Virus record (IMG/VR): IMGVR_UViG_3300031833_000016
Coordinates: 1-31,592 of that record
DNA length: 31,592 bases
Reading direction: 5' to 3' (one strand)
Source: a virus
Lineage: Duplodnaviria; Caudoviricetes
Program-made: the position numbers and the translations under genes
Shown: positions 6,398 to 27,020 of the stretch, piece after piece
Numbering within the stretch: the stretch's first letter is position 1
How the letters are laid out: each line of letters begins with the position of its first letter
Notes under the pieces: generated by a model
The model's database searches: none
What the model saw: the letters and a program-made list of their open reading frames with translations, nothing else
Told to the model about the DNA's origin: nothing

Positions 6398-6985
6398 ATG
6401 TGGCCGCTGCCCAGCGTGAACGACCTGTCCGGCTTCTCCGGCCGCCCGGCCGTCAGCTACACCTCCTACGTCAACTCGGCGCTGCTGCAGGCCGCGCTGA
6501 TGTTCACCTACCTGGCCGAGCGGAACCAGGACGACTTCGGCTCGATGTCCGCGGATGACCAGCAGCTGGCCAACACCGGGGTCATGGCCATGGCGGACTA
6601 CCTGTACCTGCGCTGGCCGTACCAGCAGGTGCTGGCCAGCCCGCTGCAGTCCGAGACGATCGGCTCCTACACCTACCAGAAGCCCTTCCAGGAGATGGCC
6701 CGCAACGCCCAGGCCATGGAGGTGTTCGCCGAGCGCACCGGGGTGGACCTGTTCGACCTGGCGGTCCGGATGCTGGCCAAGCGGACCAAGGCCAACGGCG
6801 TGTACTTCGGGCAGATTAGCGGGTTTGAGCGGTTCAACGAGCGCTATGACGGGGTGGGCATCCACTGGGACTCCGACGAGCAGCGGATGGTGCTGGTCGG
6901 CCCGTCCGACCGGGACCAGCTGGAGATGGTCATGTTCGACATCAACGCGCCCATCTTCCCCTCCGATCCTGGGGTCTTATTTTAG
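6398..6985 (+). CDS. Head-to-tail adaptor / connector
   Basis: Helical protein with QSETIGSYTY motif typical of actinophage adaptors; synteny. Ends GTC TTA TTT TAG. Confidence 0.7.
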   Translation: MWPLPSVNDLSGFSGRPAVSYTSYVNSALLQAALMFTYLAERNQDDFGSMSADDQQLANTGVMAMADYLYLRWPYQQVLASPLQSETIGSYTYQKPFQEMARNAQAMEVFAERTGVDLFDLAVRMLAKRTKANGVYFGQISGFERFNERYDGVGIHWDSDEQRMVLVGPSDRDQLEMVMFDINAPIFPSDPGVLF

Positions 6986-6986
6986 G

Positions 6987-7014
6987 TTGCATTTTTGCGT
7001 TAATGTCGTATGCT
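6987..7014 (+). promoter_or_regulatory. Sigma70-type promoter, leaderless
   Basis: TTGCAT (6987-6992), 16 bp, TATGCT (7009-7014), ATG 6 nt later at 7021. Confidence 0.55.
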
Positions 7015-7020
7015 GGCTTC

Positions 7021-7752
7021 ATGGGAAGGCCGCCGTCAATCAAACTCACTGCTGGTCAGCGCATCGGCAGGGGCGTGGTTATCGACCCCGAGACCAGGCT
7101 GGCTCCGACGCCTGCTGTGCCGAAGGGGCGCAGGGCCGCCCTGCTTCAGTGTGACTGCGGGACTCGTTACGAGGCGGCGCTGTTGACGCTTGTGCCTCGT
7201 AGGGGGGATGGCCGGATCAACACCACGTCTTGCGGGTGTGCTCAGCGGGAGATTGCAGGCGAATACGGTAAGCGCACAATCTGTGAGGCTCATTCGGCCT
7301 GGGTTGAGTCCCGTGGTCTGGGCGGGCTCTCCATGACTCCGCTGTACCGCACCTGGGCCGCAATGAAGAACCGGTGCGAGTATCCGGGCAATCCCCGGTA
7401 TCAGCACTACGGAGGCCGGGGCATCGAGGTCTGCGACCGCTGGCAGGATGTACGCCAGTTCATCGAGGACATCCTGGCGGAGATCGGGCCTTGCCCCGGG
7501 CGGGGCTGGACGCTGGACCGGAAAGATAACGACAAAGACTACGAGCCCGGTAATGTGCGGTGGGCTACGTGGTCGCAGCAGAATCGCAATCGGCAGCCGC
7601 GTAACGGGCGGGCGAAGGGGGCTAGCCGGGAGAAGGTGACCGGGTTGTGGGTAGCGCGCGTGCACCTGGGCCGGTTTGCTACCGAGCAGGAGGCCGCGGA
7701 CGTTTACCAGCGCGCGGTTGCCGTCCTGGAGCGCGAGGGCATCCTCACGTAG
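7021..7752 (+). CDS. HNH-type homing endonuclease with C-terminal AP2-like domain
   Basis: CDCG...SCGC, LYRTWAAMKNRC, YGGRGIEVC, TLDRKDNDKDYEPGNVRWAT...Q..N; C-terminal HLGRFATEQEAA. Confidence 0.85.
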   Translation: MGRPPSIKLTAGQRIGRGVVIDPETRLAPTPAVPKGRRAALLQCDCGTRYEAALLTLVPRRGDGRINTTSCGCAQREIAGEYGKRTICEAHSAWVESRGLGGLSMTPLYRTWAAMKNRCEYPGNPRYQHYGGRGIEVCDRWQDVRQFIEDILAEIGPCPGRGWTLDRKDNDKDYEPGNVRWATWSQQNRNRQPRNGRAKGASREKVTGLWVARVHLGRFATEQEAADVYQRAVAVLEREGILT

Positions 7753-7767
7753 GGCGTATAACCAGGT

Positions 7768-8196
7768 ATGGCCAAGCGCATCCTGGTCACCGTCTCGCGG
7801 ACCTACGACAACCCCGCCGAGATGGAGCGCGTGCTGCGCGCGGCGTGGACCTGGGCGCCGGGCGCGGTGCTGGTGCACGGCGCGCAGAAGGACAGCGACC
7901 TGAGGGCGGTCCGGATCTGGGCGTCCCTCGGCGGCCAGGACGAGCCGCACCCGGTCCGCTGGCGGCCTGAGTGGAACGAGGGCAAGGTCTGGAAGTTCGC
8001 CGGGTTCGACCGCAGCGAGAAGATGGCGAAGCTCGGCGCTGACCTGTGCCTGGCCTTCTTCGGCCCGTGCGACCGGGAGGACTGCTCGCTGCGCGGCAAG
8101 CACGCCTCGCACGGCGCCTCCCACTGCTCCGGCTACGCCGACCGGGTGTGCGGCATCATGACCCGGCGGTTCGGGAGTCCGATTCCCAGGGCGTGA
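7768..8196 (+). CDS. SLOG-family (YspA/DUF2493-like) protein
   Basis: RILVTVSR, LVHGA, AG..R...M, ADLCLAF, SHGA..C pattern; TATAAC 5 nt upstream of ATG suggests a leaderless start. Confidence 0.7.
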   Translation: MAKRILVTVSRTYDNPAEMERVLRAAWTWAPGAVLVHGAQKDSDLRAVRIWASLGGQDEPHPVRWRPEWNEGKVWKFAGFDRSEKMAKLGADLCLAFFGPCDREDCSLRGKHASHGASHCSGYADRVCGIMTRRFGSPIPRA

Positions 8197-8327
8197 CTGC
8201 GGATGCCCGTGAGGCCGCGTACTGGGAATCGCGCTGCCGGTACTGCGAGGCTCCGCTGCGCCGGGACGGCGGCTGCTGCATGTGGTACGGCGAGCCGCAC
8301 GACCTCCCGTATCGGGAGCGCCAGTGA
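8193..8327 (+). CDS. Small Cys-rich hypothetical protein (44 aa)
   Basis: GTGA overlaps at both ends (8193-8196, 8324-8327); CRYC...CC. Confidence 0.5.
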   Translation: MTADAREAAYWESRCRYCEAPLRRDGGCCMWYGEPHDLPYRERQ

Positions 8328-8815
8328 CCACGCCATACACCCCGTTCGCCCCGAGCCAGGCGGGCCTGGCCGTGTTCTACACCTCCACGGTGCAGGTGCT
8401 GCGGCTGACCGAGACGCTGCAGGCCGGCGGCGGCATGACCATGTCCTGGCAGCCGGTGACCACCATCGTGGACCCGCTGACCAGCGTGGTGGGCCAGCTG
8501 CGCTGCCGGATCGACCTGACCCACCTGCGGCCGGGCAAGGACCTGCCGTCGCCCATGGTGGCGGGCCGCGCCCCGGACCGGGTGGGCGTGATGTACTTCA
8601 GCCTGTCCCCGGACGCCAACGGCGCGCCGCAGGTGCTGGCCGCGGACCGGGTGCGCTGCGTGGCCGGGCCGATCTTCGGCACCTTCGAGGTGCGGCTGAT
8701 CCCCGACGTCGCGCAGGACCTGACCGGCGCCCACCACGCCGAGGTGCAGGTCATCGAGGTGTCCCAGCAGCTCGGCACGGGCAGCCCGACCCCGTTCCCC
8801 GGCAGTCAGCCCTGA
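8324..8815 (+). CDS. Head-closure / stopper-like protein
   Basis: Beta-rich, ends HHAEVQVIEV like SPP1 gp16-type stoppers; synteny. Confidence 0.6.
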   Translation: MTTPYTPFAPSQAGLAVFYTSTVQVLRLTETLQAGGGMTMSWQPVTTIVDPLTSVVGQLRCRIDLTHLRPGKDLPSPMVAGRAPDRVGVMYFSLSPDANGAPQVLAADRVRCVAGPIFGTFEVRLIPDVAQDLTGAHHAEVQVIEVSQQLGTGSPTPFPGSQP

Positions 8816-8816
8816 G

Positions 8817-9239
8817 ATGGGCGTCGTCTACGTCACCGTCGACCTGGACGGCGCCGGCGACGAGCTGGACCGGCTGGCCAGGGGGCCCGGCCCGGCCACG
8901 ATCGGCCGCTGGGAGGGCGCGCTGCTGATGTGCTACGCCGTCAGCGAGGCCCGGGCGCACGTCATCACCGGGTTCCTGAAAGCCTCCGGGCACCCCGAGT
9001 CCAGCTTCACCGCGGGCGAGTGGTCCGGCCAGGTGAATTTCGCCCGGCACCCGGGCATCTTCGAGCTGGCCCGGGACGACCGGCCGACCCGGCACCACGC
9101 CGGCGGCCACTACTTCTTCGACCCGGGCGGGCCGGAGTTCGAGCGCGAGGTGCGGCAGGCGCTGTGGGACTGGGTGACCGACGGCAAGGGCGGCCCGGCC
9201 CCGGCCGGAGGCCTGGGCCCGTACTCCGGCGGGTACTGA
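8817..9239 (+). CDS. Neck / tail completion protein (HK97 gp10-like)
   Basis: AHVITGFLKASG resembles the gp10-type (P)V.TG.L..S motif; synteny. Confidence 0.6.
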   Translation: MGVVYVTVDLDGAGDELDRLARGPGPATIGRWEGALLMCYAVSEARAHVITGFLKASGHPESSFTAGEWSGQVNFARHPGIFELARDDRPTRHHAGGHYFFDPGGPEFEREVRQALWDWVTDGKGGPAPAGGLGPYSGGY

Positions 9240-9422
9240 CGGGCCGGGCCTCCTTAGCTGACCACGAGGAAGACCCGGCCCGGACCGCCGTAGCGGGAGA
9301 GGTTCCAGCGCACCTTGGGGAAGTGAGGTGACGAGCCATGATTGCCCGGCGGCGCGGTATGGTCCCTGAGCGGGTTCCCACTGTAGTCCCCCGCCGGGCC
9401 CGCTGTCCCGATATTGCCGGAC

Positions 9423-9938
9423 GTGGATGATGTCGCGTCGGGCGCTGTTCGCTACCTGGCCGCCTTCCCCGATGTCACCGGGCTGCTCGGGGCCTTCCCC
9501 GCCGGCGACCCGATCGCGGCGAACGCCGGCCAGCCGTGGCTGTTCGCCGACACCAACGCCGGGGTCCTCAAGGTCATGGAGGGCAGCTCGGCCGCCGCGG
9601 TGGTGTGCGGTGACTTCGGCGGCTGGTCGGTGGCCGAGCCGCTCGGCACGCTGCGGTTCAGGCGGCTCCGCCTGGACGTGTGGGTGGACCCGGTGCGGGA
9701 CTCCGGCTCCAATGTCACCGAGTCCAGCAGCCTGACCACTAACCGGGGCCTGGCCGTGTTCGCCGCGGTGCAGTTCCGGCTGCAGCGCACCGACCCGGAC
9801 GCGGTGCTGTGGGGCAACCTGGTCACCACCGACTGCCACCTGCTCACCGACATCCAGTTCCTGCCGGTGCCGGACGGCGACATGCTGCAGCGGGGCACGG
9901 CCTACTACGGCGTGAGTTGCGCAGGGTGGGCCGGTTAG
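9423..9938 (+). CDS. Tail terminator-like protein
   Basis: Size, RLRLDVWVD strand and position after the neck gene; start GTG 9423 (alternative TTG 9414). Confidence 0.55.
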   Translation: MDDVASGAVRYLAAFPDVTGLLGAFPAGDPIAANAGQPWLFADTNAGVLKVMEGSSAAAVVCGDFGGWSVAEPLGTLRFRRLRLDVWVDPVRDSGSNVTESSSLTTNRGLAVFAAVQFRLQRTDPDAVLWGNLVTTDCHLLTDIQFLPVPDGDMLQRGTAYYGVSCAGWAG

Positions 9939-9965
9939 CCGGTTGGGCGCCCCGTAGTACGGGGT

Positions 9966-10508
9966 ATGGGACGAATCGCGCGTGATGTAGCTGAGCGCTT
10001 CTGGGAGAAGGTGGATCGCCGGGGTCCTGGTGAATGCTGGCCCTGGCAGGCAGGCTGCAGTCGGCAGGGGTACGGGAAGTTCGAGCTGAACCCAGGTCAG
10101 CTCGAAGTTGTTCGGGTGGGGCATTATCCGGCGCACCGGGTGGCTTACCGCTTGATTCACGGACGGTGGCCGGTACCGCACGGCCTGCACGGGTGTGACA
10201 ATCCGCCGTGTTGCAACGCAGAGAACCCGGAGCATGTGCACGAGGGCACTCCAGCGCAGAACATCCAGGAAATGTACGATCGCGGACGGGCTGATGCTTC
10301 CCGTCAAGCGGCCAGTCTCCGGCTCCGGTCTGCTGTCCATCCTTGTGGAGGTGACAGCCCCTGTTCGGCTCTCACCTGGGCGCAGGCCGAGGAGATCCGT
10401 GTTCGTTACGCAGCGGGCGGAGTGTCATGCGAGACTCTTGGTTTGCGTTATGGCGTTAGCGAGATGACTGTGAGTCGTCTCGTACGTGGGCTGCGCTACG
10501 TCCGATTA
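9966..10508 (+). CDS. HNH homing endonuclease with C-terminal HTH; coding signal ends at TTA 10506-10508 (formal ORF runs to 10964)
   Basis: RFWEKVD...CWPWQ...GYG, AHRVAY, LHGCDNPPCCN..H..EGT..QN; HTH LTWAQAEEIR...YGVSEMTVSRLVRG. Downstream ORF overlaps the next gene. Confidence 0.8.
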
Positions 10509-10544
10509 TGCTGCTCGCCGCTCAAGAGCCGGGGAGGTGGTTCA

Positions 10545-11788
10545 GTGACCGGGCAGCGCCCCCTGAAGGTGATTGTCAAGTCACCATTTTTAGCCAGTAC
10601 AGCGGCTACGGCACCGACGGCTTCGGGCTGCTCCGCGCGCTGCACCGCTGGGGCTGCGAGGTCTACCCGCAGCCGGTCTGGGTGGACGTCCCCATCCCGG
10701 GCGACCTGCTGCACCTGTTCGGCCGCACCCTGGCCGCGCCGTTCGACTTGCTCATCAATCACTGGGACCCCGGCCACCTGTTCATCACCAGGGAGGCCCG
10801 CCTGGCCACCCGGGTGGCGGTGGCGTGGACCATGTGGGAGTTCGCCGGCGGCCCGGGCAAGGACGGCCAGGGCGTGTCCGGGCTGGTGCCGCACTGCAAG
10901 GGCCGCACCCTGCTGCCGCGGAACCTGCGCTGGTTCGACATGCTGCTGGGCTATGACGAGGTGAGCCTGGCCGCCCTGGAGCCCTACACCCCGCGCAAGG
11001 TGCGCCGCGGCGTGCTCCAGGGCGGCTATGACAGCAGCGACTGGCGTCCGCTGAGCCGGGACTGGGACAGCCCCCGGTTCGGCTTCCTGATGCACGGCGC
11101 GCTGAACAAGCGCAAGGCCCCGTGGACCGCCGTGCAGGCGTTCACCGCGCTGAAGTTCGAGCGGCCCGGCCCCTGGCCCGAGGGCTTCGACGACGCCAGC
11201 CTGGCGCTGCACACGGTCGCGCCGGGGGACCTGTTCCCCGAGCTGAACGAGCCCTTCGAGGCCCAGCGGATCAAGGTGTTCGTCGACGCGTTCGACCACC
11301 GCACGCTGGAGGAGTTCTACAAGGCCGGGCACTGCCTGCTGGCGCCGTCCCTGGGCGAGGGCAAGAACCTGCCGGCGCTGGAGTTCATGACCACGGGCGG
11401 GGCGGTCGCGGCCACCGCGTTCGGCGGCCACATGCAGTGGATGAACGCGGACTACGCCTACCCGCTGGAGTACGAGCTGACCCCGACGTTCGAGCAGTGC
11501 CCGTGGGGCGCGCACAGCGCCCGGGTGCCCATCGAGCACCTCAAGGACGTCATCTGGCACATCTACGCGCACCGTGACGAGGCCCGCCGCAAGGGCGCGC
11601 TGGCCGTTGACGTCATCCCCAAGATGTGCGACTGGCAGGTGGTGCTGGAGGCGCTGTTCCGGCGCATCCGGGACGAGGTGAAGGGCCCCGGCCCGGCCAT
11701 CTACGACCTGGCCATGGGCTGCCGCCAGGAGGACGGGGACCTCAGCCTGGGCGCCCTGATGGCCCCGGCCGGGTGGAGGCGGGCGTGA
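10545..11788 (+). CDS. Glycosyltransferase GT-B/GT4-like, with frame break at 10587-10592
   Basis: SD GGAGGT then GTG 10545: MTGQRPLKVIVKSPF; continues in another frame SQYSGYG...; RK, PSLGEGKNLPALEFM (EX7E) motifs. Confidence 0.8.
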
Positions 11789-12087
11789 TGGTGACGATCA
11801 GCCCGGGCATGGCGGCGGAGGACCTGATCGTGGTCGAGGTGCGGTGCCCGGTCCCGGCGGAGCTGCCCAGCGGGCGGTGCAGGCCGGGCCGCCTGCTGCT
11901 GAAGCTGCGGCTGCGCGGCGAGGTGCCGTCCTACGTGCACCCGGACAACCTCATCGAGCTGAGCTGCGAGGACTGCAAGTACCGGCTGAAGCTGGCCGGG
12001 GTCCGGGTGGGCCGGGTGCTGCACCGCTACGACCTGGCCGGCGTCCTTTGGGAGACTCTGACTGAGGGAGGCCCTGGTCTCGGGTTA
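11788..12087 (+). CDS. Hypothetical Cys-containing protein; coding signal ends at TTA 12085-12087 (formal ORF runs to 12321)
   Basis: TGATG coupling with upstream gene; EVRC...C...LIELSCEDC; sequence after TTA overlaps the next gene out of frame. Confidence 0.65.
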
Positions 12088-12113
12088 AGCTCGCCTCTCA
12101 GGAGGTGGGGGCG

Positions 12114-12356
12114 GTGGCGCGGTCGGGAACGATCAGGCGTGATGCCAAGCAGATGCCCTGGTACCACGTGCCGCTGCCGCGGTGCGAGGCGCGGCGGAAG
12201 GCCGACGATGCGCAGTGCGTCTTCAGCGCCCGGTACGAGGGCCACCCGCATAACGGCAACGGCCAGCCGGTCGGGCTGTGCAAGACCCACGCGGACATGG
12301 CCGACTTCCCGACCCGGCTGATCCGCGTGAAGAAGATTACGCTCCGGAGGGCCTGA
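12114..12356 (+). CDS. Small hypothetical protein with Cys/His (possible Zn binding)
   Basis: SD AGGAGGT before GTG 12114; C...C...LCKTH; GC3-rich codons. Confidence 0.6.
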   Translation: MARSGTIRRDAKQMPWYHVPLPRCEARRKADDAQCVFSARYEGHPHNGNGQPVGLCKTHADMADFPTRLIRVKKITLRRA

Positions 12357-12652
12357 TGACGGATGATCCCGGGCTGGTGTTCCCCCGCACCGAGGTGCCG
12401 GCCGAGGTGGCGGAGGCGCTGGTCTCCATCGCCACCTTCGCCGCTGACCACGAGGCCATGAAGCCCAGGCCGCGCAGCGCCGTCCGCAACCCGGACGGCG
12501 GAGTCCAGGGCGAGACGCAGGCCGAGCTGACCCGGCGCCTGGTCGGCGCTGCCGTGCTGCACCTGGTGGAGATCGGCCTGCTGGTCGTGCCGGAGGACTT
12601 CGCCGCCCGGCTGGACGACTGGCTGCCGGTGTCCCGGGACGCCGGGCGCTAG
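12356..12652 (+). CDS. Hypothetical protein
   Basis: TGATG overlap, GGAGG upstream, coding-like codon use. Confidence 0.6.
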   Translation: MTDDPGLVFPRTEVPAEVAEALVSIATFAADHEAMKPRPRSAVRNPDGGVQGETQAELTRRLVGAAVLHLVEIGLLVVPEDFAARLDDWLPVSRDAGR

Positions 12653-12925: not shown

Positions 12926-13054
12926 CCTGCGGAGTTTACCTGCGGGACACCTTGCCCGCTTGTTAGGGTCGCCCCGTTCAGTAACCTACTGGCCCGCAGG
13001 AGGCCAGCCGCAGGGTACTGGCGCGGCCGGGGCTCCTGCCGGGCGGGGAGAGCC

Positions 13055-13867: not shown

Positions 13868-13909
13868 ATGTGTGATGGAGGTAGTCTGCAGCCGTCATAT
13901 GCTTAGCGC

Positions 13910-14458: not shown

Positions 14459-14471
14459 CGGGGCCGATGAC

Positions 14472-15342: not shown

Positions 15343-15651
15343 GTGCACCCGGGCGTCGTCATCGGCGGGCTGGCCGGGCTGAGCGCCGCGCTATCCCTGG
15401 TGACCGCCATCGGCCGGGCGCTGTACAAGGCGGTGGCCACCGCCCAGCAGAATGCCGGGGCCGTCGAGAAGCTGGTCACTGACGTGGCCGAGCTGCAGGA
15501 CCAGGCGACCGCGCATGACGCCCAGCTGGGCCAGCTCGGCAAGGTGCTCGCTGACGTGGGCGAGCTGCAGGACCAGGCGCACGACCACGACACCCGGCTG
15601 GCCGTCATGGAGGCGCTCGGGGAGAACGACCCGCAGGACGGTGGCAAGTGA
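15343..15651 (+). CDS. Membrane protein with N-terminal TM and coiled coil (lysis cassette candidate)
   Basis: Hydrophobic N-terminus; internal duplication DV(A/G)ELQDQA at 15481-15507 and 15553-15579. Confidence 0.6.
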   Translation: MHPGVVIGGLAGLSAALSLVTAIGRALYKAVATAQQNAGAVEKLVTDVAELQDQATAHDAQLGQLGKVLADVGELQDQAHDHDTRLAVMEALGENDPQDGGK

Positions 15652-15881
15652 AGAGGCTGGCCACCCCGCAGGCGCTCGTCATCGGCGCCGCGGTCCTGGC
15701 CGGGCTGGTGGTGCTGTTCCTGGCCGGGATCTACGTGCTGGTCAGCTGGTACGTCCAGGCCAACGATGACCGCTGGTGCTCGTACTTTGCGGTGGTGACC
15801 CAGCACGTGCCGGGGGACGGGGACCGTGCCCTGGTCATCGAGCTGCGGCAGGCCGAGCGGGAGGCGGGCTGCGGTCGATTA
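15648..15881 (+). CDS. Single-TM membrane protein with two Cys; ends at TTA, no stop before the major tail gene
   Basis: GTGA overlap start; TM helix; RWC...EAGC; then GGT CGA TTA and an in-frame run into ATG 15924. Confidence 0.65.
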
Positions 15882-15923: not shown

Positions 15924-16562
15924 ATGGCCACACTAGCAAGCTCGTACGCAGGTACCCCGTTCGAGGGCTTCTCGCTCTCCCACGCAGCCATCCTGAACGG
16001 CGCGACCGGCGCGGAGGCCTCCACGGTCTATGGCGTGCGGAATGGCACGATCAGCACCGACCAGGGCAACTTTGAAAACACCGGTGACGATGTTGTCCTG
16101 TCCGAGCATTTCTGGATCAATTTCGCGAACGTGACCATTGAAGAAGGCTTCGTGCCATTCTCCACGATCGCGCTGATCACCGGTACGACGGTCACTAGCT
16201 CGGGCGCAGCGGGTGCTGACTACTACGCTATTCCGCTGTGGACGCTCAACTCGATGAACGCTGTCACCCAGCCGCTAGCAATTCGCGTGCCGTCAAAGGA
16301 CGCGGGCGGGCAGGTACGGACGCTCGATTTCGTCCTTTACCGCGTGCAATTCCAGCCCTTTAACTTTACTGGTCCGTCGTACAAGACCGGCCTTTCCTGT
16401 TCCATCGCGGGGCGCGCGCTATTCAGCGGCGTGAACGAGATCGGCGGGGCGCTGCCCGCGTCCTACCCGCAGTCGATTGGCCGCCTGGTGGCCTGGCCGG
16501 GTGCCCAGACCGGAGCGTTCGTCCCCGAGCCGTTCGGCGCGGGCGGCGGCACGATCGTCTAG
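15924..16562 (+). CDS. Major tail (tube) protein
   Basis: Own SD AGGAGG; beta-rich ~212 aa (YGVRNGTISTDQGNFENTGDD...LYRVQF); upstream of tail chaperones and tape measure. Confidence 0.75.
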   Translation: MATLASSYAGTPFEGFSLSHAAILNGATGAEASTVYGVRNGTISTDQGNFENTGDDVVLSEHFWINFANVTIEEGFVPFSTIALITGTTVTSSGAAGADYYAIPLWTLNSMNAVTQPLAIRVPSKDAGGQVRTLDFVLYRVQFQPFNFTGPSYKTGLSCSIAGRALFSGVNEIGGALPASYPQSIGRLVAWPGAQTGAFVPEPFGAGGGTIV

Positions 16563-16564
16563 CC

Positions 16565-16812: not shown

Positions 16813-17490
16813 ATGGCCGAATCAGAGCTGGACAGGCTCGACCCAGAGCCGGTCATCGTCAAGATGTCTACCGGGTTCGCTGTCGAGGTGGTCCGGCTGC
16901 GGACCCGGCAGTTTTTTCGCCTGCTGCGGGTGCTGACCAACGGCGCCGGCCCGGCCATGATGCAGGCCGGGCTCAACTTCCGCGACAACCCGGACGACTT
17001 CACCCAGAAGTTCCTGATGCTGGTGCTGATGAGCATCCCGGATGCCGAGCAGCAGGCCATCATGTTCCTCCAGTCGATGCTCAAGCCGGCCGGGCTGGCC
17101 GACAAGCCGGACAGCCAGCTGACCAAGCAGCAGAAGGAAGACAACCAGGGGCTGTGGGACCGGTTTAACGAGGAGCTGTTCAACCCCGAGCTGACCGACA
17201 CCATCGACCTGATCGAGGTGATGGTCCGGCAGGAGGCTCCGGAGCTGCAGGCCCTGGGAAAACGGCTGCAGGCCATGATGGCGGTGTTTCAGAAGACGGG
17301 CCAGGACCAGGAGCCGCCGGAGCCGGAGCCGAGCGTGCAGGACCTGGCCTCGCAGGGGCCTTCGCCAGCGCCTTCGACATCATCTCCAGCGAGTACGGAT
17401 GGCGAGACGAGGACATCTTCGACCTCTCCCTCGGACGCCTCCGGCAGGTCGTCGAGGCCATCGGAGTCCGCCGGCAGCGTGAGCACCTGA
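16813..17490 (+). CDS. Tail assembly chaperone (G-like)
   Basis: SD GGAGG; between major tail and tape measure; contains slippery G GGA AAA. Confidence 0.8.
   Translation: MAESELDRLDPEPVIVKMSTGFAVEVVRLRTRQFFRLLRVLTNGAGPAMMQAGLNFRDNPDDFTQKFLMLVLMSIPDAEQQAIMFLQSMLKPAGLADKPDSQLTKQQKEDNQGLWDRFNEELFNPELTDTIDLIEVMVRQEAPELQALGKRLQAMMAVFQKTGQDQEPPEPEPSVQDLASQGPSPAPSTSSPASTDGETRTSSTSPSDASGRSSRPSESAGSVST
17256..17262 (+). other. Programmed -1 ribosomal frameshift site GGGAAAA
   Basis: X XXY YYZ heptamer in correct phase (CTG GGA AAA); the -1 frame is open to TGA 17849. Confidence 0.85.
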
Positions 17491-17849
17491 TCCGCCTGCG
17501 GCTGGCCGAGTGGCAGGTCAAGACGGTGTGCATCTTCATCGGGGCGCAGGCGATGGTTGACACGGACAAGACCGGCGGGCGCAACCCGCTGGTCGATGCC
17601 GCGCTGGCCATCGACGCGCTCGGCGGCCGGACCGCGGAGGAGCTGGAGCTGGACGCCATCCGCGGGGAGCGGGTGGCCGACCGGGTCGAGGACGATCCGC
17701 GGTTCGCCCCGCAGCCCGCCGACCCGGAGCACGGCGTGGAGGCGAGCAACGCCGACGGCAGCTTCGAGCGTCTGATGCAGCTCATGGGGGGCGGCTCCAG
17801 GCCGCCCATGCCGGACATCAACAGCCGCGTCAACGGGGACGGGGGGTGA
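17256..17849 (+). CDS. Tail assembly chaperone frameshift extension (T part of G-T fusion)
   Basis: -1 frame encodes protein-like AFDIISSEYGWRDEDIFDLSLGRLRQVVEAI... continuous with ORF 17526..17849. Confidence 0.8.
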   Translation, partial: GKTAAGHDGGVSEDGPGPGAAGAGAERAGPGLAGAFASAFDIISSEYGWRDEDIFDLSLGRLRQVVEAIGVRRQREHLIRLRLAEWQVKTVCIFIGAQAMVDTDKTGGRNPLVDAALAIDALGGRTAEELELDAIRGERVADRVEDDPRFAPQPADPEHGVEASNADGSFERLMQLMGGGSRPPMPDINSRVNGDGG

Positions 17850-17877
17850 GGCCGTGCGCTCGTGCGTAGTAATAAGC

Positions 17878-18612
17878 ATGCTGAAACTTTCAGATGCTCA
17901 GGTCGCTGAAATCAGGCAGCTCTGGCTGGCTGGTGGTATCTACCAGCACGAGCTTGCTGCTCGGTTCGGCGTCTCGCAGGCCCTGATAAGCCACATTGTT
18001 CGCGGGCAGTTGCATGTCAAGCCCCGTGGGCGGAATCGGCCGCCTGGGGGCCGGATCACCGAGGAGGGCCGGGAGTGCTCGCGGTGTCAGGTCTTCAAAT
18101 CCTGGGCCGAGTTCTCTCCGCTCCGTCAGTCCAGGCTGACCGGTCATCAGTCGGCCTGTAAATCCTGCCGGAATGTCAAGACCAAGGAGGCTGTAGCGAA
18201 AGATCCAGGGGCGAAGCGTCTTGCTGCCTGGGCGTCGTACCTCGTGAGGAAGTACGGCATTACTGCAGAGCAGTACGCCTGGCTGGCGGAGCGGCAGGGA
18301 CACAAGTGCGCGCTCTGCCTGCAACCGGAGACCCAGCGACGGCGTGTCGACCGGCACGGCATTGTCCGGGTGGTAGATCGCCTGGGCGTGGATCATGATC
18401 ATTCCTGCGATCGGCACGGGCTGACTCAGGCCTGCATCTGGTGCATACGCGGCCTGCTCTGCGATGACTGCAACCGGCTGCTCGGGTTCGCCGAGGCTAA
18501 GCCGCTTGTAGCTGTCCGGTTCGCTGATTACCTGGGCATGCGCCCCTTCTTGACGGAGGGAGGTGGTGCCCGAATGCAATACTCAGAGGCTGTGGGCGTG
18601 AATAATGCCTGA
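17878..18612 (+). CDS. Homing endonuclease: N-terminal HTH + Zn finger + endonuclease VII domain
   Basis: KLSDAQVAEIR...LAARFGVSQALISHIVRG; CSRC...CKSC; KYGITAEQY...Q...CALC...LGVDHDH...IRGLLCDDCN. Confidence 0.85.
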   Translation: MLKLSDAQVAEIRQLWLAGGIYQHELAARFGVSQALISHIVRGQLHVKPRGRNRPPGGRITEEGRECSRCQVFKSWAEFSPLRQSRLTGHQSACKSCRNVKTKEAVAKDPGAKRLAAWASYLVRKYGITAEQYAWLAERQGHKCALCLQPETQRRRVDRHGIVRVVDRLGVDHDHSCDRHGLTQACIWCIRGLLCDDCNRLLGFAEAKPLVAVRFADYLGMRPFLTEGGGARMQYSEAVGVNNA

Positions 18613-21600
18613 ATACAGCGGTCCTGAGTACTGGTTATCGCCTGGTATGTCATCTACAAGGCGATAGCTAGACCCTGATCAGCTGACTTCGGCGACCTCA
18701 TGCGGGACGCCAAGAAGGCCAAGGAAGCCCTGAAGGACATGGCCGACGCGGCCCGGGACGAGTCTGCGGCCGAGAAGACCGGCGCCGAGCAGGCGGCCCA
18801 GGCGCGCCGCCAGGACATCAGCGTCATCCGGGACCAGGGCCACGCGCTGGACCAGCTGGCCGCGTCGGCCAAGCAGAGCAACGTCCAGGCCCTGTACGGC
18901 GGCCGGTCGGACATGCAGCAGCACCTGGCCGACCTGGCCAAGGAGGAGCAGCTGCAGACGCTGCTCAACCGCGCGCGGAACATGGGCTTCACCACCCCGC
19001 AGCAGTACCAGGCCTACCGGCAGCAGCTGCTCGCGCTGGCGCTGAACGAGAACAAGGCCCGGTTCGGCGGGTACCTCACCCCGGACCAGTGGCTGACCTA
19101 CCTGCAGAAGGAGATCACGGCCACCAACCTGGAGACCGCCGCGATGAAGAGCCGGGCGGCGGCCATCCGGGACGAGACTTCCGCGATGCTGGAGTACGAT
19201 AACGCGGTCCAGGGCACTCACCAGTCGATCGGCCAGCTGGGCGAGGGCCTGTCCGCCGCCAACGCGTACGCCGCCGCGCTGACCGGCCTGCCGGACGTGG
19301 TGGTCACCCAGGCCGACTTCGACGCCAGCCGGGCGATGACCCAGCTGGCCATGTACCGGGCCGCGCTGATGGCGCTGCCGTCGGTGACCCGGCTGGCCAT
19401 CATGCCCGGGCAGCCGCCCGAGCCGGGGCCGCCCATCCCGATCGGCCCGCCCGAGCCGGGCGCGCTGCCGCCGCCGGACCGCCGGGCGCTGCCGCCGGGC
19501 ACCATGGGCGAGGGTCCGGGCTCCGGCTGGCGCACCGTCGGCGGCATCGAGGCGTTCATCGCCAGCGTGCTGCGCGCCGTCCAGGCCGCCGACCGGTACC
19601 AGGATGCCGAGGCGGGGCTGGCGTTCACGGTGCGCGGCCTGGACGGGGACCAGCGGTCGGCGGCGGCCAGCGCCTACCTGATCAGCCTGGCGCAGCGGGT
19701 GCTCGCGGACGACACGGGCAAGGCCACGGCCAGCATCGAGGAGCTGCGCGCGGCGTGGGCCAAGCTGACCGACGAGGAGCGGATCGCGCGCGCGGGCGGC
19801 GCGTTCGGCGCCCCGCCGCTGCCGCCCCGCGGGCCGCCCGGGCCGCCGGGGCTTCCGCCCGGGCCGCCGGAGCCGCCCGCCCTGCCGCCCGGGGGAGGGC
19901 CGGGGCCGGATGACGCCCGGGCGGCCGAGGCGTCGGCTGAGGCGATGGACCGGCTGCGCGGCGCGCAGGACGCCGAGGCCCAGTCCTCGGACCGCACCGC
20001 GCAGGAGTGGCTGCGGATGGCCGAGTCCGCGGATACCGCCACCCGCGCCGCGGCCTACGTCCGGGCCGCCGCCATCGCGGAGCGGCTGGCCCAGCAGCAG
20101 GCGGGGGACGCCGCGGAGAAGGCAGGACGGCAGGTCGAGGCCACCGTGCCGGGCCTGATCAAGGCGACCGGCGGCTGGTTCGGCCTGGCTGGCACGCTGA
20201 CCGTGTTCGGCGGGTTCATGGGCACCGTCGCGGTCTGGCACGTGGTCCTGGACGCCCTCATCGAGGCGGTGGCCATCCTCATCCCGGCCATCGTCACGCT
20301 GATCGCCGGGCTGGCCGCGTTCGGCCTGGCCGGCCTGGACGCGGGCAAGGCCGTCTACAACCGGCTCGTCGACGTCTACAACGTCAGCGATGCCTGGGGC
20401 GCCTCGCTGCCGCCGCTGACCGGCAAGCTGGAGAAGCTGCACGAGCAGGTCCGGCCGATGGTCTGGCAGCTGTACGGCGATGCGATCGACATCGTGACCA
20501 GCAAGAACGGCATCTTCAACAGGCTGGCCGTCGAGACCGGCCGCGAGGTGGACCGGCTGGCCGGCAAGCTCACCGTCTTCGTGGACCAGGCCAGCAAGGG
20601 ACTCGACAAGTTCTTCGCCGTCGGCGGCCAGAACCTGGCCCAGCTCGGCCGCATCCTGGCCAGCCTGGGCAACGCCTTCATGAACCTGATCCGGGTCACC
20701 CAGCAGACCCATATCGACCAGATTTTCCTGCAGATCCTGGTCGCTGCGTCCAAGCTCCTGGACATGCTCACCCGGCTGCCGACGCCGATCCTGGCGCTGA
20801 TCGTCGGCATCCACGGGCTGTGGCTGTGGGGCGGGCTGCTGGCCACGATCCTCTTGAGCCTGCTGAACCCGATCAAGTCGGTAGCGCTGGCGCTGGGCGG
20901 GCTGGCCGCCACCCAGGTGGCCAAGAACGCCTCGTCCTGGACCCGGCTGACCACCGTGCTCGGTGACATCGTGGCCGGGTTCGCCGCCATCCCGGGCCGC
21001 ATCACCGGCCTGCTGGTCTCGCTTGGCGTCCTCACCGGGGCCACCGATGCCGCCGCGGCCAGCGAGGACGGGCTGGCCGCCTCGGCCGGGGCAGCCGCCA
21101 TCGCCGAAGAGGCCGAGATGATGGCGACCGGGGAGCTGGCCGCCGCCGAGGTCGTGGCGACCGGGATGACGTTCAGCCTGGCCGGGGCGATGGGCGTGCT
21201 GCTGGCCGCGCTGCCTTACGCCGCCATCATCGCCGTGGTCGCCGCCATCGGCTTCTTCATCTACAAGGTGGCCACGGCCAAGGACACCACCCAGCAGTGG
21301 ATCGACTCGCTGAACGCCGGGCTCGGCAAGTCCGGCCTGGGCAACGTGATCGCCAATACCATCCAGAACCTGGCCGCGGTCACCCAGCAGCTGGCCGCCG
21401 TCCAGCACGGCGCCACCGGGAACGCCTCGGAGCTGTCCGCTGCGCAGGCCGACCTGAGCGGCAAGCTGCAGACCGAGCTGGGCCACGTCGGGCAGGTATC
21501 CAAGGCCTACGGCACCGACCTGGCCGGGGCGCTGGCCCTGCTCAACACTGCCGGGGTCAAGACCAGCGACCTGTTCACCAACCAGGCCAACGTGTGGGCT

Positions 21601-24600
21601 GCGGACCTGCAGCAGGTCAAGGGCCTGGTCGACGGCTACCGGAACATGGGCCAGGGGCTCACCCAGCTGCAGGGCGACGTGTCGGTGCAGATCATCCTGC
21701 AGTCCGACGCGCTGACCGCGATGAACAAGCTGAACCAGGCGTGGGACCAGTGGTTCACCATCGTGACCGGCGGCCAGACCGACCTGGTCAAGTTCCTGCA
21801 GACCTATCAGTCGCTCACCCAGCAGCAGCAGGTGGCCGGGGCCTCCACCTCCGGGCTGAACAGCCAGAGCCTGGCCCTGCGCAGCACCTACAACCAGCTG
21901 CTGCCGCAGGCCGAGAGCTACGTCGACTGGGTACGCACCCAGGCCGCGGTCACCCAGAGCGGCGAGTCCGGGCAGAAGCAGCTGACCCGGGCGGTGCGCG
22001 ACTACGCCGACATCCTCGGCCCGGCGGCCGGCGGCAACAAGGCGCTGCAGGACTCGGTGATCGCGCTCATCAACGAGGTCGACCCGAGCATCACCACCTG
22101 GCAGCAGGCCACCAAGTGGATGGGCAAGCAGGGCGCGGCCCAGGCCGCGGCCGACCTGAACACCCAGGCCACCCAGCTGGAGAAGCCGCTGTCCGACCTG
22201 CAGCAGGACGCCCAGAAGCTCGGCGCCTCCCTCCAGAACGACCTCGTGCCGGCCATGACCAACGCCACCAAGGGGGCGCTCGGCGCGCAGTCCAAGTTCA
22301 ACACCTTCTCCGATGACCTGTTCAAGTTCGGGCCGAACAGCCAGAAGACCATCGACGCCGCCGCCCAGGTGGCCTCGGTCCTGATCGCGATCGACGGGAA
22401 CAGCAAGAAGGCACACGACCAGTTCGTCGCCTGGGCCGGCACCATGGGCGTGACCCGGGACCAGGCCGAGCAGCTGTGGAAGTCCGCCACCAAGATCGGC
22501 TCGGCCAAGTACCAGCTGCAGGTCGAGGACAACATCAAGCACGTGCAGTCCAGGCTCGACGTGCTGCAGGCCGAGCTGGGCAAGACCACCGACCCGAAGA
22601 AGCGCAAGCTGATCGAGCTGGAGATCAAGTACGAGAAGGACAAGCTCGACCAGCTCAACGGGCAGCTGATCACCGCGGCCGGCAACGCGGGCAAGATCGA
22701 CAAGAACATCGCCGGGGCGGGCAACACGGCCGGCAAGCTGGCCCAGTCCAGCGTCTGGGCCCAGATCCGGGACAAGATCAGCTGGGCGCTGTCGCAGCCT
22801 ACCGGGATCTCCGAGATCGAGAAGTTCTTCACCAAGACCCTGCCCAACAGCTCCGCGGTGGGCAGCAAGTCGGCCGCCCAGCACTGGGCCGACAACTTCA
22901 ACCGCACCGTCGGCCGCGTCTTCACCAGCGACATCCCGCACTGGGCGACCACCGCCGCCGGCGCCGTCTCCGGCTCGTGGATCACCGGCTGGCACGGGTT
23001 CTACAACAACGTCCAGACCCCGGTGCACAACTTCTTCAACACCCAGATCCCGAGCTGGGCGGCCAGCGCGGGCGGGTTCCTGGGCCGCGACTTCTCCAGC
23101 TGGTACAACAGCTTCCACGGCAACTTCATCGTGTTCGTCGGCCGCGCCTTCATGAACCTGATCCCCGGCTGGATGGGCGGCGCGACCGCCGCCTGGGGAA
23201 AGAGCACCTCGGGGATGGCCCAGGGCTGGGCGAACAACGTCAACCGCACCGTCGGTCACTTCTTCACCTCGGACGTCCCGAACTGGGCCACCAGCTTCGG
23301 GTCCACGATGTGGTCGACCGGGGTGGGCATCTGGCACGGGTTCTACAACAACGTGCAGACCCCCATGCACACCTTCTTCAACACCACCATCCCGAACTGG
23401 CTGGGCGGCTTCGTCAGCGGGTCCGACAGCAGCGCGGTGTCGATCTGGCACGGGTTCTACAACAACGTCCAGACCCCGGTGCACAACTTCTTCAACACCC
23501 AGATCCCGAGCTGGCTGTCCGGGATGGTCGGGTTCTTCGCCGGCTCCTGGATCATGACCTGGCACGACTTCTACTCCTCGGTGTGGACCCCGTTCCACGA
23601 CTGGATCACCAAGACCCTCCCGAACTGGCTGTCCAGCGACCTGGTGCCCGGCTTCAAGCTGGCCTGGGACAACGTGTGGGGCGGCTTCAAGAACGCGGGC
23701 CGGGACGCCATCAACTGGGTCATCGACCACGTGATCAACCACGGGATCTTCGCCCTGATCAACGACGTGACCGGTGTCTTCGGGGTGCACATCCACGACA
23801 TCGGGCTGGTCAAGGCCTCCGGCGGCGACGTCCCCTTCGCCCGGATGGCCTCTGGCTCGGTGGCCGGCCCGAGCGCGGTGGACGGCACCCCGATCCTGGC
23901 CATGGGCGGGGAGTACGTGCTGCGCCAGTCGGCCCGGATGGCGCTGCAGTCCGCCTACGGCCCGGGCTTCCTGCCGATGCTCAACCAGGCGGACAGCTGG
24001 CTCGGCTCGGGCTCGCGCGGCATCGCCGCCTCGCAGCGCTACGCCCTCGGCGGCCAGGTCAACCCGGTCGGCCCCGGGCTGACCCCGGAGCGGGTCGACA
24101 TGGGCGTGGACTACGGTGGCTCCGGGCCGCTGTACGCGATCGGCTCCGGCACGATCAGGAACCTGTACAACAGCGGCTGGCCCGGCGGCACCTTCATCGA
24201 CCTCCAGCTCAACCCGTTCTTCGGCACCGGGTACTGGTACTACGCCGAGGACATCACCCCGGCCGTCAGCATCAACCAGGGCGTCTCCGCCGGGCAGCGG
24301 ATCGGCACCGCCTGGGGCGGCCCGTCCGGCATCGAGATCGGCTGGGCCTCCGGCGTCGGCGGGCAGACCGCCGCCGCCCGCGATGGCCAGGAGAACAAGC
24401 ACGGCGACCCGGGCGCGTTCCCGACCGCGTGGGGCGTGGCGGCCAGCAACCTGATCAAGTCGCTCGGCGGCCCGCCCGGCATCATCTCCGGCCCCGTCCA
24501 CGGCGGCACGCCGGGGTTCGGCGGGTTCGTCGGGGCCATCGAGGGCTTCCTCGACGGGGCCGGCAGCGCGCTGACCGGTGCGGGCCGCGCGCTCGCCGGG

Positions 24601-26157
24601 CTGATCGGCGGCTCGGCGTCCAGCATCCTCGCCCTGGCCCGCAAGGGCGCCCGGGCGCTGTTCGACGCGGCCTGGGGCCACACCGTCACCCCGATGCTGG
24701 GCCATCTGGGCGATGACGTCCCCGGCACCCTGGCCCAGCTGGCCGGCCACGAGATCAAGGCCGGGGTCGACAGCTGGCTGGGCCGCAAGGACTCCGCGGC
24801 GCAGGCCCAGTCGGCTGCGTCCGGCCTTCCGGGAGCGCCGCCCGCTGTCGGCCCGATCCAGCAGTACGCGAAGAAGCTGCTCGCTCAGTACGGCTGGTCG
24901 GGCCAGTGGTCGTCGTTCGACGCGCTGGAAATGCACGAGGCGGGATGGAATCCTACCGCCCAGAATCCGGCGTCGACCGCCTACGGGATTGGCCAGTTCC
25001 TGGACAGCACCTGGGCCACGGTCGGCGGCCACAAGACCAGCGACCCGTACCTGCAGCTGCAGTACATGATGGCGTACATCAAGCAGCGGTACGGGTCGCC
25101 GAACGCCGCGTGGGCACAGTATTTCAACCACCCGGGCGGCCAGGGATCATACGCCGGCGGCGGCCCGGTCCGCTCCGCGGGCCCGGCCTTCCCCGGCGGG
25201 CTGGACGCCGAGGACACCTGGCTGCAGTACTCCACCACGGTGCTGCCCAGCGCGGTGCGCTCGGAGATGGACGCCTTCTGGGGGCTGTTCGGGACCAAGC
25301 TGCCCAAGAAGACGTCGGCGAAGGACTGGGCGCAGTGGTACGCCGAGGAGCTGATCCTGGCTGCCCAGCAGCGCAAGACGATCGGCATGGGCACCGCCCC
25401 GGCCGGGGCCTACATGGCGCTGAGCGAGGACTTCGTGCGGCCCGAGGTGATCACGCCCGGGATGTGGTCCACGTTCGCCTCGCGGCTGAACACGCTGACC
25501 GCCTGGCAGGGCGGCCCCGGCGAGCCGGGCGGGTCCGACCCGCCGCGCTCGGCCTGGCATTACGAGACCCAGGGCAAGTGGCCCAAGGGGCAGCGCCCCG
25601 CGCCCGGCCGCATCCAGCCCAGCGGCTACCCCGGCTGGAAGCACCTGCACCCGCAGTGGATCAGGCTGCGGAACCGGCTGCTCGACCTCAAGGCCAAGGC
25701 CAAGGTCGCCTCCCAGGCGTGGAACGCGCTGTACGCCGGGGCCGGGCTGGCCGGCGGGGTGCCCGGGCCGGGCGCGGCGCCTCCCCCGGCGCCGCCGCCG
25801 TTCCCCGGGCTGGAGGCTGTCGTCACCATCGGCGGCCCGCCGGAGCCGGTCATCGGCTCGCCGCCCGACTCCGGCTACGGGTTTGCCGCGGGCGGCATCG
25901 CTGACGTCGCCGCGCTGTTCGCGCTGGGCGGCCCGGTGCCCGGCATCATGCCGCCGAGCCCGGCGCGGATGTTCAGCGGCAGCCCGTCCGGGTCCGAGTT
26001 CCCGCGCTCCCTGTCTGACGCCGGGGCGTCGGGCCGGGGGATCGGCTTCAACGTCGAGTCGATGACCATCAACAACCCGGTTGCCGAGGCGCCGAGTGAG
26101 TCGATCACCAGGGCGTCCAACCGGCTGGCGTTCCTGGCAGGGAGGGGGATGGCGTTA
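18605..26157 (+). CDS. Tape measure protein (~2500 aa) with M23-like and lytic transglycosylase domains; 5' end interrupted twice, 3' end at TTA
   Basis: Main ORF 18700 onward: Ala/Gly-rich helical protein, hydrophobic segments, W/F repeats, SLT motif MHEAGWNPTAQNPASTAYGIGQFL. Start 18605 and end 26157 are my inferred boundaries (see findings). Confidence 0.85.
22990..23514 (+). repeat. Three copies of a 69-bp coding repeat in the tape measure gene
   Basis: 22990-23058 and 23446-23514 identical; 23332-23400 diverged; encode WHGFYNNVQTP(V/M)H(N/T)FFNT(Q/T)IP(S/N)W. Confidence 0.9.
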
Positions 26158-27020
26158 TGCCCCAGATCGCGCCGCCGGTCGCCGCCTACAGCCCGGCCGA
26201 GCTGTGGTACTGGAACGGGGTTGCGCTCAACCAGCAGTGGCTCAACATCGCCACCATGGGCGGGTCCCGGTTCGGGCTGCCGGTGCTCCGCGGCCAGAAC
26301 TACGAGGTGCCGTACCGGGCCGGGCAGGCGTGGCGGGCCAAGTTCCCGGACCAGCGCACGATAACGCTGGCCATGTGGCTGAACGGGGCGGCCACCGCTA
26401 GCGTGGCCTACCCGGCGGCGGACCCGCGGCTGGCGTTCAACAACAACCTGCAGCAGCTGCGCCAGCAGCTGTGGGCCCGCGGCGCGGGCGGCTCGCTGCA
26501 GGGCCAGCTGCAGCGCAACTGGTACCTGACCCAGGGCACCAACAAGCTGGTCACCTCCACCGCCATGGCCGAGGTGGCCGGCTCCATGGACCTGACCATG
26601 TCCGGGCGGCTGCACGCCGGGTTCAGCGTCGACTTCCTGCTGGCCGACCCGTACTTCTACGGCGCCCAGCAGACCCAGGCGTGCACGGGCGCCAGCACCA
26701 CGTGCACGGCCCTGGGCGAGGGGGTGGTGGGCGAGGGGTACTCCAGTGCGGTCAATGCGTTCACCGTGCAGCTGAGTGCCGCCTGCACGGTGACCAACGG
26801 GACCGCCGGGGTGGCCTTCAGCTTCGCCCAGGCGGGCGCGCAGTACCCGGTCACCGTCGACGTGCTCAGCTGCACCGTCACCGACAACGCCGGCATCAAT
26901 CAGGTGGCCGGGCTCACCCACAGCGGCAGCCGGTTCTGGATGGCGCTGCTGCCGGGGGCCAACATCATCACCGTGAGCGCTGGTACTGCCACGTTCCGGT
27001 GGAACGATTGTTACGCCTGA
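26157..27020 (+). CDS. Distal tail protein (Dit)-like minor tail protein
   Basis: SD GGGAGG; first gene after tape measure; RTITLAMW, FSVDFLLADPYFYG, LLPGANIITV motifs typical of Dit. Confidence 0.8.
   Translation: MPQIAPPVAAYSPAELWYWNGVALNQQWLNIATMGGSRFGLPVLRGQNYEVPYRAGQAWRAKFPDQRTITLAMWLNGAATASVAYPAADPRLAFNNNLQQLRQQLWARGAGGSLQGQLQRNWYLTQGTNKLVTSTAMAEVAGSMDLTMSGRLHAGFSVDFLLADPYFYGAQQTQACTGASTTCTALGEGVVGEGYSSAVNAFTVQLSAACTVTNGTAGVAFSFAQAGAQYPVTVDVLSCTVTDNAGINQVAGLTHSGSRFWMALLPGANIITVSAGTATFRWNDCYA

Follow-up and report, generated by a model that had tools for sequence, protein, structure and literature searches.

UUA-triggered translational bypassing has been described for the large terminase gene of the Streptomyces phage phiHau3 and of two prophages (Smith et al. 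2013, as related in part of Antonov et al. 2023, PMC10732093). In the available text of that account, short non-coding blocks of 7-10 nucleotides (nt) headed by an in-frame UUA interrupt this essential late gene in 3 of 100 terminase genes, and intact orthologs, a landing codon and local RNA structure are associated with them. Here we analyze a 31,592-nt fragment of a tailed phage (IMG/VR record IMGVR_UViG_3300031833_000016, positions 1 to 31,592), referred to below as the window. Comparison with orthologs supports a reading in which UUA (TTA in the DNA) is not read as leucine in this phage and its relatives, and would act both as a take-off signal for ribosome hopping and as a stop-like codon.

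Other described systems share parts of this behavior. In the T4 gene 60/MobA system a bypassed gap protects the DNA against the enzyme and can persist after its loss; that gap is single, 50 nt long, triggered by UAG and aided by a nascent-peptide signal (available text of 10.1101/2022.08.31.505936). The byps of Magnusiomyces capitatus mitochondria are numerous inserts of 27-55 nt in essential genes, led by a permanently unused codon and with some imperfect landing codons (PMC5009743 and 10.1101/2022.08.31.505936, in the parts available). UUA serves as a stop codon in labyrinthulean and Marsupiomonadales mitochondria and in peDinoflagellate plastids, where it occurs only where orthologs end, no cognate tRNA is found in the genome, and the reassignment is fixed, with altered release factors; the accessible part of the report calls the plastid case the first outside mitochondria (PMC12574857).

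The window has a G+C content of 70% and encodes head decoration, major capsid, tail assembly chaperone, tape-measure and minor tail proteins, together with five free-standing HNH or endonuclease VII genes. Its plus strand contains 46 TTA triplets, and seven of these are in the frame of a gene (6977, 10506, 10590, 12085, 15879, 18635 and 26155) in a gene set that holds 850 leucine codons. Five of the seven are at gene ends, two are at frame breaks and none is mid-gene. The first-pass annotation, made from the letters of the window, had listed the same seven positions and no mid-domain TTA, and our gene set bears it out. The same letters were found in long public contigs of four of four sequencing runs at each covered site, one run lacking coverage of 6977; the window itself may derive from these runs, and contigs drop rare variants. 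The assemblies thus give no sign of the stop codons or indels that the annotation had named as grounds for discarding its proposal. For the window alone the absence of mid-gene TTA is not beyond chance, as less than one would be expected at the host rate (7 in 121,453 codons of three actinomycete genomes), and the cultured phage Magritte has no TTA in 12,972 codons. Orthologs were therefore examined, and the significance of what follows rests on them.

The frame breaks lie near the starts of a glycosyltransferase gene and the tape-measure gene, in the following arrangement.

10545..10589 (+), 5' piece of the glycosyltransferase gene, 15 codons, with a GTG start behind GGAGG and the take-off codon TTT as its last codon
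10590..10591 (+), hop site 1, a 2-nt insert (two extra T); it places UUA in the A site, and an overlapping TTT is the landing codon
10592..11788 (+), body of the glycosyltransferase gene (phrog_2170, PF13692)
17854..18612 (+), free-standing endonuclease VII-type gene (PF02945, phrog_2633), overlapping the broken tape-measure start
18605..18634 (+), tape-measure piece 1, 10 codons, fitting intact N-termini and ending in the take-off codon TGG
18635..18645 (+), hop site 2, an 11-nt TTA-led insert ending in TGG and forming the 5' arm of a hairpin
18646..18669 (+), second piece of the tape-measure gene, 8 codons that intact orthologs conserve, the final ones pairing with the insert
18670..18684 (+), hop site 3, a 15-nt in-frame insert with GCT as take-off and landing codon, led by AGA and containing TGA
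18685..26157 (+), tape-measure body; its last codon, TTA 26155, overlaps the start of the next gene as TTATG
18607..18693 (+), predicted RNA hairpin spanning both tape-measure inserts

The matched codons proposed for hops at the two TTA-containing breaks were confirmed, TTT and TTT with 2 nt at 10590 and TGG and TGG with 11 nt at 18635. The glycosyltransferase 5' piece fits the N-terminus of intact orthologs, with differences that are mainly synonymous. The ATG at 10508 had been a candidate start for this gene; orthologs rule it out and place the true start at GTG 10545. Alternatively, hop site 1 could be a -1 slip that adds one Phe. The glycosyltransferase gene of other relatives is broken at three other codons of the same stretch, with a TTA-led insert each time. 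Some relatives have an intact start of the tape-measure gene, and in the others the breaks fall on five different codons. In relative G006 (L065; L066 upstream of 8001) the glycosyltransferase match begins at residue 58 and is preceded by unrelated sequence, the 5' end having either received a larger insertion or been replaced. Hop site 3 is absent from the first-pass annotation; six related inserts at the same codon are TTA-led.

Breaks were sought in orthologs by a frameshift-aware alignment in which TTA was given no special weight. This yielded 46 distinct breaks in six gene families, 41 of which begin with an in-frame TTA; the remainder are the AGA-led insert of the window and four without TTA in three other records. 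The 41 TTA-led inserts, which are sequence variants and not independent events, occupy about 21 codon positions, none of them beyond codon 75, and are 2-30 nt in length. Record G007, which represents the phage of the window itself (2 mismatches in 26,391 nt) and reaches further upstream, has three further inserts in its portal gene. The landing codon is identical to the take-off codon in 26 of the 41, synonymous in nine, alike in two of three bases in four and unmatched in two, so that 35 of 41 are identical or synonymous against 2.2 expected by chance. Among 34 degenerate take-off codons 20 end in A or T, where 2.6 would be expected, and these rare codons would pair weakly in the P site. The first-pass proposal that UUA is a take-off signal is thus supported beyond the two cases that it had named, and we consider the hop reading very likely. 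Two relatives carry a break of a different appearance, in which a tail-fibre-like gene (G002 117065, minus strand; G004 11976, minus strand) is broken at codon 7 by two T that make a TTA, with no matching landing codon; this may be a -1 slip instead of a hop.

The breaks might instead be mended at the RNA or DNA level, bypassed by use of a downstream start, or be the marks of dead genes or assembly errors, and an in-frame ATG at 18700 in the tape-measure gene of the window would fit a downstream start. This explanation is very improbable. Nine landing codons depart from their take-off codons by no more than a synonymous third base, which suggests re-pairing of a tRNA and not a DNA repeat. Without exception the TTA lies in the frame of the preceding piece, protein-level conservation extends to the upstream and middle pieces, the broken genes of L047 and L055 lack this downstream Met, and the assemblies agree.

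The predicted hairpin over the tape-measure start, folded as the stretch 18600-18700, has a folding energy of -39.6 kcal/mol (z -4.6), and none of 200 shuffled sequences was as stable. One base pair that joins the insert to an Ile codon further on reads T-A in the window, G-C in three genomes and A-T in another record, a compensatory change. No such structure was predicted near 10590 (z -1.2) or in two portal stretches, and of the 20 inserts that could be tested, 9 surpass 95% of random fillings in predicted folding. Judged by these folding predictions, local RNA structure is not general to the hop sites. Near codon 71 of the L291 portal gene, a 30-nt TTA-led insert is predicted to fold into a perfect hairpin, with the take-off codon included in its loop of four bases; this is the closest likeness to the take-off stem-loop of gene 60. 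A further observation at the tape-measure start is a GGAGG-rich box and ATG 18574 (window 18555-18612) that open a 12-codon frame, the tail of the endonuclease open reading frame (ORF), overlapping the start. Similar short frames occur in relatives (L012, L047; G002 126774-127190, minus strand), and those of G001, G002 and G009 end in TTA-TGA over the start, recalling the UUA-ended upstream ORF of adpA.

In the window each broken gene is immediately preceded by a gene for a homing-type endonuclease. Across relatives such a gene was found within 900 nt upstream of 16 of 30 broken variants and of 7 of 122 intact ones (Fisher p 1e-8, not kinship-corrected). By family, the frequencies for broken and intact genes were 6/12 and 0/11 for the tape measure, 5/7 and 0/31 for the portal, 3/5 and 1/25 for the glycosyltransferase, and 0/3 and 4/40 for the capsid; L048 was scored as broken by hand. 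Ten nuclease queries were used. The five of the window, applied first, gave 0/7 for the broken portals, and five HNH proteins from upstream of broken portals were then added; these favor the portal row, and the same queries found none 5' of the 31 intact portals. The portal-upstream nucleases are of the HNH type. The link between inserts and nucleases would explain the clustering of the inserts at 5' ends. The inserts go with adjacent homing endonucleases, and their purpose looks more selfish than regulatory.

The first-pass annotation had proposed a selected purpose, the inverse of bldA logic, by which virions would be made only while the host UUA tRNA is inactive and the phage would otherwise wait. 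The same logic has been proposed for phiHau3 (in the part of PMC10732093 available), and it accords with the location of five of the six broken families in the virion region, with the purine that follows TTA in 32 of 41 inserts and so creates a stop in the +1 frame, and with the persistence of inserts in variants that have no nuclease. Nevertheless, most orthologs are intact, several near-complete genomes hold few inserts, and the sites differ among genomes. No integrase (PF00589 or PF07508) was detected in any of five near-complete genomes, the major tail gene had no relative in a search of genome contigs for prophages, and the capsid had none in 401 Streptosporangiales genomes. A temperate lifestyle was dropped on these grounds, and without an integrase the lysis-lysogeny logic of phiHau3 is not directly transferable. 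Inverse bldA logic, with UUA as a selected regulatory gate, is rather unlikely; it can coexist, as a later use, with the explanation that we prefer, namely UUA as an undecoded take-off and stop-like codon with inserts of selfish origin.

The second role proposed for UUA concerns gene ends, where the relevant features are these.

6398..6979 (+), conserved gene of the head-tail region, 193 residues, ending at TTA 6977, with TAG two codons on
9966..10508 (+), free-standing HNH endonuclease gene (PHROG HNH matches), ending at TTA 10506, directly 5' of the broken glycosyltransferase gene
10503..10508 (+), CGATTA motif, apparently promoter-like, whose TTA is the last codon of the endonuclease gene
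11788..12087 (+), small conserved gene ending at TTA 12085, with TAA in the +1 frame
15648..15881 (+), membrane-type ORF of 77 residues, ending at TTA 15879 within CGATTA
15924..16562 (+), major tail protein gene, assigned by synteny with phage Magritte; it has a GGAGG and an ATG of its own
26157..27020 (+), minor tail (Dit-like) gene (phrog_5577), whose ATG overlaps TTA 26155; orthologs in 10 of 10 records

If these TTAs were read as leucine, translation would continue, counting the TTA, for 2 codons at 6977, 152 at 10506, 78 at 12085 and 69 at 26155 before a standard stop, and for 227 at 15879, in an in-frame fusion with the major tail gene. The extension lengths and the gene fusion given in the first-pass annotation are therefore correct. 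Orthologs carry TAG, TGA or TAA in the TTA column at 6977, 10506 and 26155. At 6977 each of the 16 other ortholog rows has a standard stop no more than two residues away, and in three rows the column is the same. The column at 10506 has TGA in one homolog and TTA in another. At 26155, where TTATG replaces TGATG at the junction of the tape-measure and minor tail genes, 13 distinct rows comprise four with TTA and nine with a standard stop, eight of the nine at the same column. The TTA at 12085 is in a variable tail; close orthologs reach a standard stop 0-8 residues past the last conserved motif, and here the distance is 6.

In nine genomes TTA occupies 17 of 980 ortholog stop columns. Within 212,759 aligned internal codons there are 11 TTAs, all judged by a codon model to be off-frame or past the gene end, where about 12 internal TTAs would be expected at the host rate; no credible mid-domain TTA aligned with leucine was found. 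The codon TTG, a comparable one-step neighbor of stop codons, occurs at one stop column and 510 times internally. Extensions past TTA reach up to 126 codons and are not conserved. Two outcomes that the first-pass annotation had said would overturn it, conserved extensions and mid-domain TTAs aligned with leucine, are thus absent from the nine genomes. The gene calls treat TTA as a stop by design, so that the number of TTA-ended genes (1-12 per genome) and the TTATG counts are not independent evidence. Among the genes that end in TTA are some of the replication region, one for a radical SAM protein and one for a sigma factor. Because the trait is therefore not limited to late genes, terminal TTA is, on this comparison, a genome-wide trait and not the virion-operon device that had been proposed. 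A stop-like role for UUA is probable.

The radical SAM gene (930-960 residues; G001 43488-46280, with orthologs in G002-G005 and G009) ends at TTA in six of six genomes. The orthologs are 55-82% identical, their extensions are unrelated and the DNA around the TTA is conserved; this TTA might serve as a conserved stop or belong to a promoter.

At TTATG junctions some ribosomes might hop into the next gene and make fusion proteins, in the window a fusion of the tape measure with the Dit-like protein. The last codon recurs within 20 nt in the frame of the next gene at 8 of 14 junctions, including 26155, against 2.8 expected. Several of these eight, however, are orthologs of two gene pairs, six of the 14 junctions have no landing codon, including the tape-measure junction of G002, and most orthologs end in real stops. 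Such fusions are quite unlikely.

A number of observations weigh against the reading of UUA as an undecoded take-off and stop-like codon, most of them at gene ends. The 12085 site has a TAA in the +1 frame, an ortholog search for the 77-residue ORF ending at 15879 found none, and the TTAs at 15879 and 10506 are inside CGATTA. Upstream of the major tail gene CGATTA is present in nine of nine relatives shown, in differing frames and in eight of the nine just past a standard stop; CCGAT-type words lie 5' of the glycosyltransferase gene in several relatives; and 27 of 89 (C/T)CGATTA words sit 15-90 nt ahead of a called start. We infer from the sequence that CGATTA is a promoter element. At 15879 the upstream ORF appears to have lost its own stop and to run into CGATTA, and the same is probably true at 10506. 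Since relatives keep the motif ahead of the major tail gene in any frame, selection for a stop probably does not account for the TTA at 15879. Other one-step neighbors also occupy stop columns (CAG 16, GAG 14, TGG 13, TCG 12 and TCA 7), so plain stop loss is common. Six of the 17 TTA extensions are six codons or shorter, and the extensions that follow TTA exceed those following other codons by a modest margin only (median 12 versus 5, p 0.012). Counts of start overlaps are noisy (TGA 49, GCA 20, TCA 12 and TTA 8). Two distant relatives, L082 and L083, hold TTA within conserved stretches, as if it were read as Leu, and mark the edge of the trait. Among the hop sites, the AGA-led insert of hop site 3 is at odds with a rule confined to UUA. 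AGA is used four times in the genes of the window, and the tRNA cluster of the phage of the window lacks the block that holds Arg-UCU in seven relatives, together with many other tRNAs, although contigs may not cover the cluster whole; the trigger may be AGA or TGA. As to selfish origin, 14 of 30 broken variants have no upstream nuclease with the ten queries, and the capsid shows no nuclease link in the table, which is not kinship-corrected.

The supply of tRNA and release factors bears on the same question. Seven relatives have 33-37 tRNA genes each, with Leu-CAA and Leu-CAG and never Leu-UAA. These phages also lack Leu-UAG and yet use CTA 237 times, so the missing phage Leu-UAA tRNA is not specific. 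The cluster of the phage of the window is much reduced, with 12 tRNA genes found (L272 34-2863, L273 346-2626) and the Ile-to-Asp block absent from its usual place. Direct checks found tRNA-Leu(UAA) in five of five candidate-host genomes, and three of these use TTA mid-gene, rarely. A host without this tRNA, as allowed for in the first-pass annotation, was thereby rejected for the five genomes. Earlier tRNA pattern searches (1/151; 46/101 with any match) had overlooked short-arm and CC-UAA forms, and the tRNA-Leu(UAA) of the candidate hosts is of the short-arm form. Among Streptosporangiales tRNAs with a short variable arm (L504 1501-1576 of G049; L373, L383, L388), that of G049 has C instead of U directly before the anticodon and may decode poorly. 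Canonical RF1 and RF2 motifs (PxT, SPF) are present in five actinomycete genomes, the release-factor domain PF00472 was found in one of five phages, with no factor shared among them, and Pth domains (PF01195 and PF01981) were found in none of the five. The exception, G005 16933-17646 (L160), encodes a 237-residue protein with a release-factor GGQ domain, in which no codon-reading domain was found and which has no homolog in the other genomes; it is a candidate ArfB-like protein. The anticodon nuclease suggested in the first-pass annotation was not named among 198 of 214 called G001 proteins searched with Pfam or 57 with PHROGs, most of which are unannotated, so its absence is unproven.

These points are the basis for an alternative in which the hops are real and the terminal TTAs are read as Leu, as tolerated stop losses or parts of a promoter motif that add harmless tails. 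The retention of tRNA-Leu(UAA) and canonical release factors by the hosts, the conservation of CGATTA 5' of the major tail gene in any frame and the replacement of stops by other codons all favor it. Against it, a well-read UUA would make the TTA-led inserts inactivate portal, capsid and tape measure; the contrast between 17 stop columns with no credible internal TTA and the reverse pattern for TTG would be left unexplained, as would the long unconserved extensions and the replacement of TGATG by TTATG in several unrelated gene pairs. We therefore regard leucine decoding of the terminal TTAs as unlikely. The first-pass claim that UUA is a systematic fourth terminator and take-off signal is supported for take-off and, at ortholog stop columns, for the stop-like role; it is weaker at 15879, 10506 and 12085.

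The explanation that we prefer is that UUA is most likely left undecoded during infection. The host tRNA-Leu(UAA) would be scarce, uncharged or lost in infected cells, and the phage would provide none. In the available parts of two reports, the tRNA of bldA is scarce or inactive in vegetative Streptomyces (PMC10732093, PMC2635970). A ribosome stalled at UUA would hop to any matching codon that lay 2-30 nt downstream; with none there, release of the protein is the likely outcome. In a hop the peptidyl-tRNA would leave its weakly paired take-off codon and re-pair downstream, helped at some sites by a hairpin. At gene ends, release might come slowly from a near-cognate host release factor, after a +1 slip into UAA or UAG before a purine, or by ArfB-type rescue. 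Tagging by transfer-messenger RNA (tmRNA) would destroy proteins stalled at terminal UUA; deletion of bldA gives few extra tmRNA-tagged proteins (PMC2635970, in the part available). Inserts and homing endonucleases probably spread together, and an insert would destroy the cut site of its enzyme. A block on virion proteins whenever UUA is readable would be a consequence of this arrangement and not necessarily its purpose. We estimate the probability that hopping, stop-like use and a selfish origin of the inserts all hold at about two in three. Somewhat more tentative, and a little short of an even chance, is the fuller proposal that UUA is a true fourth stop on bacterial ribosomes during infection, a conditional change from sense to stop outside organelles, the empty A site allowing homing endonucleases in general to place bypassed inserts in essential virion genes.

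Compared with the systems outlined above, the inserts resemble those of phiHau3 in the UUA at their head (10590, 18635 and 41 of 46 breaks) and in the matching landing codon (35 of 41). They differ in extent, with 41 insert sequences in six other families and no TTA-led break in the terminase pieces aligned, and in their link to homing endonucleases, a word ("homing") that does not occur in the available text of PMC10732093. They differ also in that no integrase was found and in that TTA also replaces stop codons. The gap beside a free-standing homing endonuclease is shared with gene 60 and MobA, at both broken genes of the window and in 16 of 30 broken variants versus 7 of 122 intact genes; in place of one 50-nt gap with a standard stop as its trigger there are many gaps of 2-30 nt led by a sense codon, with take-off in some cases after no more than 7-10 codons. 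The byps offer the same picture of many inserts in essential genes, but in an organelle, whereas here bacterial ribosomes are involved and the likely host has the tRNA gene. As in the organelles with a UUA stop, UUA occurs only where orthologs terminate, the exceptions being the hop sites and the two distant relatives. The cognate tRNA is missing from the seven phages and present in all five candidate hosts, no altered release factor was found in the five actinomycete genomes, the host code is standard, and UUA would also trigger hops. The phage family thus resembles phiHau3 in trigger and gene 60 in origin, and lies outside both as defined. A literature search that took in few subscription papers found no report of multi-gene UUA bypass or of a homing-endonuclease link to it, and none in which a bacterium or phage terminates at UUA.

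Relatives of the phage, up to 152 kb in size, are uncultured. In the phage collection the capsid has a single cultured match, Microbacterium phage Magritte, with 49% identity. The RecA, L7/L12 and DivIVA sequences of relative G001 point to actinomycete hosts, with Streptosporangiales favored. Homologs of both ribosomal protein L7/L12 and DivIVA, encoded in G001 at L103 12159-12542 (minus strand) and L108 5177-5815 (minus strand), are borne by phages, and G001 also has a polynucleotide-kinase-like gene. The head module of the window contains a haem peroxidase gene with a twin-arginine-like leader (1082-2644) and a GNT-I-type glycosyltransferase gene (4742-5497), whose close homologs are on metagenome contigs. 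The tail assembly chaperone pair (16813-17849) changes frame near 17300-17400 without a TTA, a pattern that the programmed frameshift usual for such pairs would produce.

Very few genes are known to undergo programmed bypassing. The dozens of differently built and very short gaps described here form a natural set from which the take-off codons, gap lengths and hairpins that allow an efficient hop could be learned, and they make the phiHau3 proposal testable over many genes. Standard gene finders mis-call the genes for portal, capsid and tape measure in these soil phages. Should UUA end proteins as well, a sense codon would be acting as a stop on bacterial ribosomes, which would raise the question of which factor frees a 2,500-residue chain at UUA.

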